DNA of 64,000 nt from Escherichia phage BF17. Positions 17,269-18,561 of this stretch are shown here, one piece after another. The notes under the pieces are model-generated. The model ran no database searches. It had not been told where the DNA came from and saw only the letters and a program-made list of their open reading frames with translations. Each line of letters begins with the position of its first letter. Position 1 is the stretch's first letter. The position numbers and the translations under genes are program-made. The stretch lies in sequence record MW822008.1. One strand, given 5' to 3'.

Positions 17269-17643
17269 ATGAGTATGTTAGAAATAATTGTTTCAAAAAT
17301 TCTTATTCCATTTTGGAAACCAATTTCTTTTGTATTATTAATTGGCGGTTCAGCTTATGCTGGTTGGGAAGCTAATACTTATTACAGTGGATATCAACAA
17401 AGCATAGAGCAACAAATAGCTAAAAAAGTTGATACCGCCTTGGATAAAATGCAACAAGAAAATGCAAAAAATTACCTTGAAACTAAAAAAATCATGGAAG
17501 ATAATGCTAAAGTTATTGAAACAAAGGTTCCTTTTATTGTAGAACGTGAAGTTTATAAGAATGTATGTTTAGATGAAGATGGTGTAAAAGTACTGAATGA
17601 ACTAAAACAAAATTCTCAAGCAGCGAGGAATAAATTCAAATGA
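17269..17643 (+). CDS. i-spanin (Rz-like)
   Basis: N-terminal TM segment ILIPFWKPISFVLLIGGSAYAGW then charged helical periplasmic domain; 4-nt overlap with o-spanin. Confidence 0.6.
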   Translation: MSMLEIIVSKILIPFWKPISFVLLIGGSAYAGWEANTYYSGYQQSIEQQIAKKVDTALDKMQQENAKNYLETKKIMEDNAKVIETKVPFIVEREVYKNVCLDEDGVKVLNELKQNSQAARNKFK

Positions 17644-17948
17644 AAAAATTATTAGTTCCAATGATTTCTTTTTTAATTATAAGTGGGTGTGCCGAGCAAG
17701 TAAAACTACAATCCCCCGCACCAATTAAACAAGAAATTCTGTTAGAAAGATGTGATGATGATACACCTCTACCACAAAAAATTATGATTGACAAAAATGG
17801 TTTTAAAGGTTATGATGGTGCAGAAATTCTTAAAGTACTTACTCGTTGGGATGCAGTCTACAATGAATGTGCTTTAAAACACGACGCATTGATTAAAACT
17901 ATTCGTGATTTACAAGGTAAAGATATTAAAATCAATATCAAGGAATAA
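17640..17948 (+). CDS. o-spanin (Rz1-like outer-membrane lipoprotein)
   Basis: Signal peptide with lipobox ISGC (MKKLLVPMISFLIISGC), Pro-rich mature region. Confidence 0.6.
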   Translation: MKKLLVPMISFLIISGCAEQVKLQSPAPIKQEILLERCDDDTPLPQKIMIDKNGFKGYDGAEILKVLTRWDAVYNECALKHDALIKTIRDLQGKDIKINIKE

Positions 17949-17949
17949 A

Positions 17950-18561
17950 ATGAACAAATATCATGTTTACTATACGACAAAATTATCACTTCTTGAAGAA
18001 TTAAATCAACGAAGTACTAAGATGAAACGCTACACTTTAAATGGTATTACTTTTCGATATTTCCCACAAAAAGTTCTTACTTTTGTTAAGAATCCAAAAT
18101 GCGTGGCATGTGGGATTGAAGCTACTGAAGTACGCATTGAACGTTCATTATGTTCTGATCCAGTATATGGTAAACCACATTTAAATGTATATGCTGTATG
18201 TGGTCTTTATGAAGTTTTAATGACAGTTGACCATAATCATCTGGCATCTAAGGGTGGACCTGATTTAGAGTCAAACTTTAATACTATGTGCTCCAGATGT
18301 AATCAACTACGTTCGAATAAAACTGAAACAGTTGATGAGTTTCTTGAGAAAGTTAAAGGTCGTAATCTTCTCCAAGAACATATGAATAATTTCTTTAATG
18401 TACAAAAAAAGAAAAATAACATTGACAAGTCGAAACTACTAGAAGAACGTAGGTTACGTCAAGAATTATGGGAAACCGATCATCTATGGCATGTTCGAGA
18501 GTTTGGTCGTCATATGAAAGCTTTGAAAAAAGAACAGAAGAAATTGAATAAACATGATTGA
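17950..18561 (+). CDS. HNH endonuclease (free-standing, homing-endonuclease-like)
   Basis: CVACG...DHNHLASKGG...N...CSRCN HNH/zinc motif; start set to ATG 17950 (ORF track 17905). Confidence 0.7.
   Translation: MNKYHVYYTTKLSLLEELNQRSTKMKRYTLNGITFRYFPQKVLTFVKNPKCVACGIEATEVRIERSLCSDPVYGKPHLNVYAVCGLYEVLMTVDHNHLASKGGPDLESNFNTMCSRCNQLRSNKTETVDEFLEKVKGRNLLQEHMNNFFNVQKKKNNIDKSKLLEERRLRQELWETDHLWHVREFGRHMKALKKEQKKLNKHD

Follow-up and report, generated by a model that had tools for sequence, protein, structure and literature searches.

Does the HNH endonuclease gene that abuts the spanin genes of Escherichia phage BF17 mark a recent insertion, or is it an old resident of this locus? The question was examined in a stretch of 64,000 nucleotides from sequence record MW822008.1 (the window), whose positions 16000–20000 match Escherichia phage vB_EcoM_phAPEC6 with 99.8% identity and 15 PBECO4/121Q-group records with 99% or more. 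The window is of the PBECO4/121Q/phAPEC6 type of Asteriusvirus, RaK2-like jumbo coliphages with genomes of about 350 kb. Public records annotate an "Rz-like spanin" and an "HNH endonuclease" at this locus, while many still name the o-spanin "hypothetical protein"; the annotation of the spanin pair and the HNH gene is already known. The reading favoured here, with a probability of about 0.6, is that the HNH gene is an old nuclease gene, free-standing and of the homing type, which by now travels with the spanin operon as a stable, selected passenger.

The transcription unit and its spanin genes

Two terminator-like hairpins bracket a predicted unit of four genes, specifying an acyl carrier protein (ACP)-like protein, the i-spanin, the o-spanin and the HNH protein (Table 1). 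A promoter-like site lies directly 5' of this unit, and the promoter-then-hairpin layout of 16722–16775 is repeated at 18544–18596 as well as in Serratia phage BF and in phage Yen9-04. Pfam, PHROG and NCBIfam each give the ACP-like gene a weak match to ACP, and sequence comparison revealed that its motif reads DWLD, without the phosphopantetheine-attachment serine, where orthologues retain DSLD.

Table 1. Features of the spanin/HNH locus and the lysozyme gene (positions in the window)
Feature	Position	Strand	Remarks
Sigma-70-type promoter-like site	16722..16750	+	TTGACA-17-TATAAT, 12/12 in a consensus scan; putative function
Intrinsic-terminator-like hairpin and T-run	16752..16775	+	ends upstream tail-protein gene; abuts promoter-like site
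Acyl-carrier-protein-like gene	16796..17215	+	first gene of unit; phrog_18343, E=1e-61
i-spanin (Rz-like)	17269..17643	+	124 aa; N-terminal membrane anchor, periplasmic domain, one Cys (C100)
o-spanin	17640..17948	+	102 aa; predicted outer-membrane lipoprotein, lipobox ISGC, Cys17; PHROG 2425, E=1.7e-24
Free-standing zinc-finger HNH endonuclease gene	17950..18561	+	203 aa; PF01844, phrog_23285
Promoter-like site	18544..18572	+	precedes terminator-like hairpin
Intrinsic-terminator-like hairpin and T-run	18573..18596	+	closes unit
Lysozyme with LysM domain	27018..27971	+	PF00959 (Phage_lysozyme), E=2.4e-11; PF01476; outside spanin/HNH unit

The i-spanin gene is preceded by an AGGAG Shine-Dalgarno sequence 8 nt 5' of its start, and its product matches PHROG 1152 "Rz-like spanin" over its full length (E=6.6e-29). 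Hydropathy analysis placed the hydrophobic stretch at the N-terminus (residues ~6–33; top 19-mer from residue 6, KD 1.81), the protein outside this anchor being charged and polar. Orthologues were found by tblastn in 71 phage records. Two-component spanins consist of an i-spanin in the inner membrane and an o-spanin lipid-anchored in the outer membrane, which together span the periplasm and, once the holin and lysozyme have acted, complete lysis by disrupting the outer membrane. By analogy, the pair in the window would work as a standard two-component spanin in outer-membrane disruption.

The o-spanin N-terminus is a signal peptide (MKKLLVPMISFLIISGC) ending in the lipobox I-S-G-C, with Cys17 followed by Ala at +2 (MKKLLVPMISFLIISG-C17-A), that is, a lipobox cysteine without the inner-membrane retention Asp at this position. 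C17, C38 and C77 are invariant in all 11 aligned orthologues, and the residue preceding the lipobox cysteine is Gly in 10 of the 11 and Ala in the other. C38 and C77, together with C100 of the i-spanin, could serve in disulfide-linked complexes. Against the Pfam LysC family (PF23793, Rz1-like) the o-spanin scored 15.3 bits, under the cut-off of 27 (E=0.019), through its signal/lipobox part only; since this is below the gathering threshold, the protein was not placed in that family.

Read directly from the sequence, the two spanin genes are joined by a 4-nt overlap, ATGA. Kongari et al. 2018 (PMC6139136), who count even an 8-bp overlap as "separated", list the PBECO_4/121Q spanins as "separated" two-component spanins, and by the same criteria the pair in the window has "separated" architecture. 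It is an ordinary pair, already catalogued, and is 100% identical to that of PBECO4/121Q. Like PBECO4/121Q, coliphage T4 (PseT.3/PseT.2) has an N-terminally anchored i-spanin and an o-spanin lipoprotein bigger than lambda Rz1, as in the window; the T4-type genes likewise are not embedded, lie apart from those of the holin and endolysin, and specify an o-spanin with two periplasmic cysteines. The window's i-spanin differs in possessing one cysteine where T4 PseT.3 has none, and tblastn detected no similarity between it and T4, its matches being to RaK2-like phages and one Pseudomonas phage. With lambda Rz/Rz1 the pair has the two-component logic in common, as well as the PHROG "Rz-like spanin" match, but lambda Rz1 is embedded in Rz and much shorter, whereas the genes in the window share ATGA only. 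For BF-like Erwinia phages it has been reported that no i-spanin was found (PMC7760394); contrary to that report, an i-spanin homolog lies directly 5' of the o-spanin in these phages.

The genes on either side are that of the ACP-like protein, 5' of the spanins, and, 3' of the HNH gene, phrog_6343 (unknown function) and DUF7325. No holin or endolysin was recognised among these neighbours using Pfam and PHROG. The lysozyme gene begins 8.5 kb past the HNH stop and 9.1 kb past that of the o-spanin, and its counterparts in the 121Q and BF records are annotated as lysozyme. Dispersed lysis genes are usual in T4-like and RaK2-like phages (PMC6139136; PMC7760394). A preliminary description of this DNA had proposed a non-embedded i-/o-spanin pair with an ATGA overlap, an o-spanin with an ISGC lipobox, no adjacent holin or endolysin and a lysozyme 9 kb away. 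The open reading frames and PHROG matches bear out the pair and its overlap, the lipobox can be read in the sequence and its cysteine is invariant, the neighbouring genes are those just named, and the PF00959 and LysM matches identify the lysozyme.

The HNH gene and its distribution

The o-spanin TAA (17946–17948) is followed by a single spacer base and then by the HNH ATG, which is preceded by an AAGGA Shine-Dalgarno sequence within the last o-spanin codons (..AAG GAA TAA). Residues 84–123 of the HNH protein match PF01844 with 26.0 bits (gathering cut-off 21.4), and the protein matches PHROG 23285 "HNH endonuclease" from end to end (E=3e-131). The preliminary description was therefore correct in calling this a free-standing HNH gene, since the 203-aa reading frame is self-contained and its PF01844 score exceeds the cut-off, and in having it begin 2 nt past the o-spanin stop, the ATG starting at the second base.

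Eight residues (C51, C54, D94, H95, N109, C114, C117 and N118) are invariant in 14 HNH sequences with identities down to 43%. The cysteines make up the CxxC...CxxC zinc site (C51/C54/C114/C117), while D94-H95, N109 and N118 form the catalytic set; judging from the Pfam consensus, N118 probably occupies the H-N-N variant position. An AF2 model (pLDDT 81) contains the HNH core, and the protein has a beta-beta-alpha-metal core. A search of PDB sequences with the HNH profile gave no match below E=0.36. Neither a signal peptide nor a membrane segment was found in the protein, the maximal 19-residue hydropathy being 0.81. Its family comprises 16 clusters at E<=0.001, and those clusters with a named source all derive from RaK2-like phages or E. 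coli records. Nuclease activity, a target for it, and homing or marker exclusion are putative properties which we infer from the sequence.

Two other assignments were considered for the protein. A match to the IscB HNH domain (NCBIfam; 26 bits against a threshold of 175) was dropped as generic HNH similarity, because the protein has no RuvC domain and the structured RNA adjacent to it, described below, is also present in HNH-less phages. A packaging role of the HK97 gp74 type, gp74 likewise being a small HNH protein of a phage and having a beta-beta-alpha-metal core, was rejected in view of the neighbours (ACP-like, spanins, phrog_6343 and DUF7325) and the lack of a terminase neighbourhood: of 75 features annotated over the 50 kb that surround the 121Q ortholog, not one bears a terminase or portal name.

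Using tblastn, the HNH gene was found to co-occur with the i-spanin in 31/32 Escherichia, 10/10 Klebsiella, 8/8 Salmonella and 4/4 Yersinia records, and the two loci are adjacent wherever the tblastn results gave coordinates. It lies directly 3' of the o-spanin in the Asteriusvirus genomes 121Q, A4, Turkey5, UE-S1, ph0011 and fEgEco12, and occupies the same junction in RaK2, 7t3, Hallingskeid, Yen9-04 and two 7t3-like IMG/VR contigs. The lineages carrying it there are thus every sampled Asteriusvirus proper, RaK2, 7t3/Munch, Hallingskeid and fHe-Yen9. The CMSTMSU record was left out on account of its UNVERIFIED_ORG flag, fragmented genes and low-quality assembly. The gene is truncated in SHEFM2K (two extra A within an A-run) and in SD-1_S14; since both truncations look like homopolymer or assembly errors, they were not counted as decay of the gene.

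Clean empty junctions were seen in Serratia phage BF, the Erwinia pEa_SNUABM phages (pEa_SNUABM_12), GAP32, CBB, XbC2, Kaldavass and EJP2, and also in three CBB-like IMG/VR contigs. At the empty sites the next conserved gene follows ~50–75 nt past the o-spanin. BF and pEa_SNUABM_12 are congeneric with Yen9-04; GAP32, CBB, XbC2 and Kaldavass are Mimasvirus-like, and EJP2 infects E. coli. For IMG/VR, presence and absence were taken from the loci of a scan for the RNA motif described below, an o-spanin alignment search having given six loci, mostly known isolates. Within most clades, presence or absence is fixed.

A nucleotide alignment of BF with Yen9-04 matches up to the o-spanin stop and resumes at the -35 element of the promoter/hairpin cassette, and the Yen9-04 HNH reading frame exactly fills the gap between these two points. 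Free-standing homing endonuclease genes have this anatomy: they occupy an intergenic slot in some phages, and in others the slot is cleanly empty. There was no dip in identity beside the HNH gene in this comparison, the values of 74.5% on its upstream and 86.8% on its downstream side lying within the regional background of 74–87%.

The divergence of the gene follows that of its neighbours. HNH identities to the window are 83% in A4, 69% in Turkey5, 54% in RaK2, 40% in 7t3, 42% in Hallingskeid and 33% in Yen9-04, compared with 69, 64, 58, 45, 38 and 36% for the i-spanin in the same order. Within Asteriusvirus the identity matrices of seven genes, among them the HNH gene, the spanins and DUF7325, are mutually consistent. 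The Yen9-04 allele is equidistant (31–34%) from all others, as are its spanins, which fits ancient presence better than recent import. Nei-Gojobori dN/dS values for the HNH gene are 0.07–0.15, equal to or below those of the spanins, and this includes the N- and C-terminal regions; dS is saturated, exceeding 1 between Asteriusvirus alleles. Its GC content (32.7%) and GC3 (21.6%) are similar to those of the neighbours, and tblastn located it at a single place in each Asteriusvirus genome. As to horizontal movement, neither incongruence with neighbouring genes, as judged from the identity matrices, nor multiple copies in Asteriusvirus were found. In 7t3-like genomes, tblastn revealed a second HNH-like place.

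One recombination event was mapped near the gene. Phage 121Q and the window are identical through the HNH gene and its terminator, starting no later than 16700, the final window-type site being 18596; from 18637 to ~19502 phage 121Q is 99–100% identical to fEgEco12, and then returns to the window type. The breakpoint of this ~900-bp patch consequently lies between 18596 and 18637, 35–75 nt 3' of the HNH stop. The window and 121Q differ by about six patches, with ~12 boundaries, in the first 21.6 kb, and from this boundary density the chance of a boundary within ~80 nt of the HNH end was roughly estimated at 0.05–0.1. The breakpoint gives weak support for endonuclease-stimulated recombination, because it would arise by chance in ~5–10% of cases and because boundaries favour conserved intergenic DNA anyway.

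A candidate structured RNA downstream

The most conserved DNA of the neighbourhood is a gene-free region of 690 nt at 19371–20060, where the window and fEgEco12 show 96–99% identity, compared with 70–88% in the flanking genes. Fourteen orthologous regions, representing at least five genera, were aligned; all of them have the extended -10 element TGnTATAAT, and sequence is conserved over ~570 nt. The GC content here is 40.6%, against ~30% in the surroundings. RNAalifold indicated compensatory changes in 33 of 63 pairs. For a structure of 91 pairs, 93% of the cells can pair, as opposed to 36–46% with the partners slid; double changes occur in 40 pairs versus 6–13, and the covariation score is 0.43 versus 0.07–0.11.

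Rfam gave no match over the region including the candidate RNA, even at E<=10, and ARAGORN found no tRNA or tmRNA there. In IMG/VR the core motif occurs at only 19 places, 17 of which are on contigs of 345–378 kb and two on contigs of 137 kb and 31 kb, often with two places per genome; Yen9-04 has a second paralogue at 260.3–261.1 kb. In the window, a covariance model of the core detected a single copy (19760–19876). The segment at ~19400–19980 therefore looks like a large (~570-nt) and perhaps undescribed structured RNA of RaK2-like jumbo phages. Its presence in HNH-less phages as well indicates that it is not tied to the HNH gene, and this unannotated candidate is of more interest than the ordinary spanin/HNH finding.

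Origin and persistence of the HNH gene

The preliminary description had raised the possibility that the spanin/HNH junction is a fresh insertion site, free-standing HNH genes of phages often being mobile homing endonuclease genes; synteny with relatives lacking the gene was to serve as a check. Such relatives, with clean empty sites, do exist, but they are distant, and that comparison did not bring out recency. The free-standing gene does abut the o-spanin directly, as an insertion would; yet every close relative, like four further lineages at genus level, has it at the same place, where it diverges as much as its neighbours do, its synonymous sites are saturated between Asteriusvirus alleles, and its composition has ameliorated to the genome's. 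The low dN/dS and the single copy in Asteriusvirus speak against recent arrival in the same sense. The preliminary description had named presence at the same position in all relatives, with no sign of mobility, as fatal to its proposal, and this is what was found for all close relatives; the proposal is refuted, and we attach hardly any probability to it. Nor does it seem at all probable that the gene belongs to a lysis module, for instance as a nuclease released or activated at lysis and coupled to the o-spanin for that reason. The shared transcription unit, the 1-nt spacing and the maintenance of this arrangement in five lineages would suit such a role, but a protein with neither signal peptide nor membrane segment would not, and relatives lyse with the same spanins in its absence. 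We know of no lysis role for HNH proteins.

What remains to be weighed is whether the gene is of the homing type or a domesticated nuclease serving the phage in late DNA processing, recombination/repair or the degradation of host or competitor DNA. Domestication, the main alternative, which we regard as a possible though rather unlikely explanation, accords with the fixation of the gene in all the genomes examined that belong to Asteriusvirus proper or Alcyoneusvirus or are 7t3-like, with purifying selection over the whole protein including its terminal regions, with a phylogeny that by identity comparison agrees with the neighbouring genes, and with its predicted co-transcription and tight coupling with conserved genes. 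Against it stand the dispensability of the gene in three lineages of otherwise the same gene order, including BF, which belongs to the genus of Yen9-04; the clean intergenic slot, as for free-standing homing genes; and a location beside the spanins and DUF7325, not beside terminase, portal or replication genes. The absence of any sign of recent movement was counted against the homing-type reading. Lasting purifying selection on a population-fixed gene is, moreover, not predicted by a simple homing cycle and suits a domesticated function equally.

Known free-standing nuclease genes of the homing type can be compared with it. The Mob (HNH) and Seg (GIY-YIG) genes of T4 are likewise small intergenic reading frames of patchy distribution on a neighbour's transcript; the HNH protein gave no sequence match to T4 in tblastn at E<=1e-3. 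Unlike these, the putative homing gene of the window has become fixed throughout whole genera and is vertically stable there. A GIY-YIG homing endonuclease gene is situated between the spanin genes of the T5-like phages Shivani and phiR201 and is absent in other members (PMC6139136). This is a precedent in that there too a homing-type nuclease gene sits at the spanin locus, but it is of the GIY-YIG type and lies between the i- and o-spanin genes, whereas the HNH gene follows the o-spanin.

As an old homing-type gene, the HNH gene would have entered the intergenic site before the RaK2-like genera split and would since have been inherited mostly vertically, being lost or never fixed in the BF group, Mimasvirus and EJP2; parsimony alone does not separate three losses from three gains. 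It would be read from the same transcript as the o-spanin. A plausible reason for its retention is that in co-infections the protein would cut those alleles of relatives that are divergent or lack the HNH gene, which would favour its own locus.

The value of this analysis lies mostly in annotation, namely the o-spanin labels and the overlooked i-spanin of BF-like Erwinia phages. It adds that the HNH gene is old and selectively maintained and that the junction is empty in some sister lineages, which carries little weight as a discovery. The gene offers a low-priority test case for the persistence of free-standing nuclease genes after fixation in giant phages. A speculative and improbable extension is that the HNH protein is a still-active weapon of marker exclusion which cuts the divergent phrog_6343/DUF7325 allele of co-infecting relatives. 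If this were true, repair from the HNH-bearing genome after the cut would convert short stretches, of which the ~900-bp fEgEco12-type patch in 121Q would be an example, and a selfish-looking HNH gene would have been kept intact across whole genera of jumbo phages by its marker-exclusion activity, not by any function in lysis.

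A candidate structured RNA gene

Close to the spanin and HNH genes, a stretch without genes behaves, judging from its sequence, as a structured RNA gene of about 570 nt. Its GC content is 40.6%, against approximately 30% in the flanks, and it has been kept in 14 RaK2-like phages belonging to at least five genera. Between lineages it is 96–99% identical, the flanking genes showing just 70–88% identity. Covariation is strong, with double changes at 40 of 91 pairs, and 93% of cells were paired in the structure versus about 40% in a control in which the partners were slid. Rfam, tRNA and tmRNA searches of this stretch yielded no match. 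In IMG/VR the core motif occurs at only 19 places, 17 of which lie on contigs of 345–378 kb, and often at two places per genome; the window holds one copy. Yersinia phage fHe-Yen9-04 (Yen9-04) possesses a paralogue with 71% identity to the window's copy, to which it is nearer than Yen9-04's own syntenic copy, and this indicates an RNA family with at least two subtypes.

Features in the window and in relatives; L-numbers denote fetched stretches of relatives' records, with local coordinates
Feature	Position	Strand	Remarks
Candidate structured RNA gene, ~570 nt	19371-20060 (core about 19400-19980)	+	gene-free stretch, covariation, conservation
Extended -10 promoter, TGnTATAAT	19391-19399	+	invariant
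Paralogous RNA copy, Yen9-04	L022 1147-1911 (record 260.3-261.1 kb)		another gene-free gap
Promoter and terminator-hairpin cassette	16722-16775; 18544-18596		intergenic, repeated
Like cassette, Serratia phage BF	L006 about 3125-3190		
Like cassette, Yen9-04	L008 about 3665-3735		
phrog_6343 gene	18614-18970		next after HNH; function unknown
469-aa protein gene	48629-50038		separate; 121Q orthologue gp564, amid virion genes

Intergenic cassette and gene content around the spanin genes

The repeated cassette consists of a sigma-70-like promoter followed, no more than 1–2 nt past the -10 element, by a terminator hairpin and then a T-run. Transcripts from its promoter would start within the 5' arm of the hairpin and so escape termination, while those arriving from upstream would terminate there.

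Phage 121Q is the same as the window on both sides of 18597-19527, within which it carries a patch identical to fEgEco12 that spans the genes for phrog_6343 and DUF7325. Past 21.6 kb, the identity of 121Q to the window drops to about 84–88% throughout. The exchanged patch and this drop show mosaicism among these near-identical phages. The phrog_6343 gene was found in Asteriusvirus, 7t3, EJP2 and Hallingskeid, and is absent between the o-spanin or HNH gene and DUF7325 in RaK2, BF, Yen9-04, GAP32 and CBB, so that this short region contains several small genes that vary independently. Directly 5' of the ACP-like, spanin and HNH genes, window positions 13393-16720 specify tail fibre/tail proteins of 178 and 929 aa. 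Both genes are missing from UE-S1, ph0011 and fEgEco12, in which a nucleotidyltransferase gene immediately precedes the ACP-like gene; this is probably the indel of a host-range cassette.

The ACP-like and i-spanin genes

Most RaK2-like phages that were examined carry an ACP-like gene here, upstream of the spanin genes. The window's protein (16796-17215) reads DWLD at the site of the DSLD motif of acyl carrier proteins, and thus lacks the serine for phosphopantetheine attachment. The orthologues of Turkey5 and RaK2 have DNCD and DTWD, respectively, and DSLD is retained in those of A4, BF, GAP32, CBB and 7t3. In the published description of the Erwinia pEa_SNUABM phages an i-spanin could not be found (PMC7760394). 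In pEa_SNUABM_12, a "putative membrane protein" (L013 2456-2821) adjoining the o-spanin on its upstream side is homologous to the window's i-spanin (41.6% identity).

HNH endonuclease records and copies

The HNH gene appears truncated in two records, SHEFM2K (L004 15950-16444) and SD-1_S14 (OR699183). Two additional A residues in the A-run at 18405-18411 (window coordinates) account for the SHEFM2K truncation; true decay is a less likely origin than a homopolymer sequencing error. The annotation of 121Q gp564 as "HNH endonuclease / Zn-dependent hydrolase (T4 gp25-like)" looks doubtful. Within the clade of Salmonella phages 7t3, SE_PL and PHA46 and Klebsiella phage fENko-Kae01, TBLASTN matched the HNH protein at two places in each genome, so that a paralogue may exist elsewhere in them. 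Should this second copy prove real, it would be the sole sign of transposition for this HNH family.
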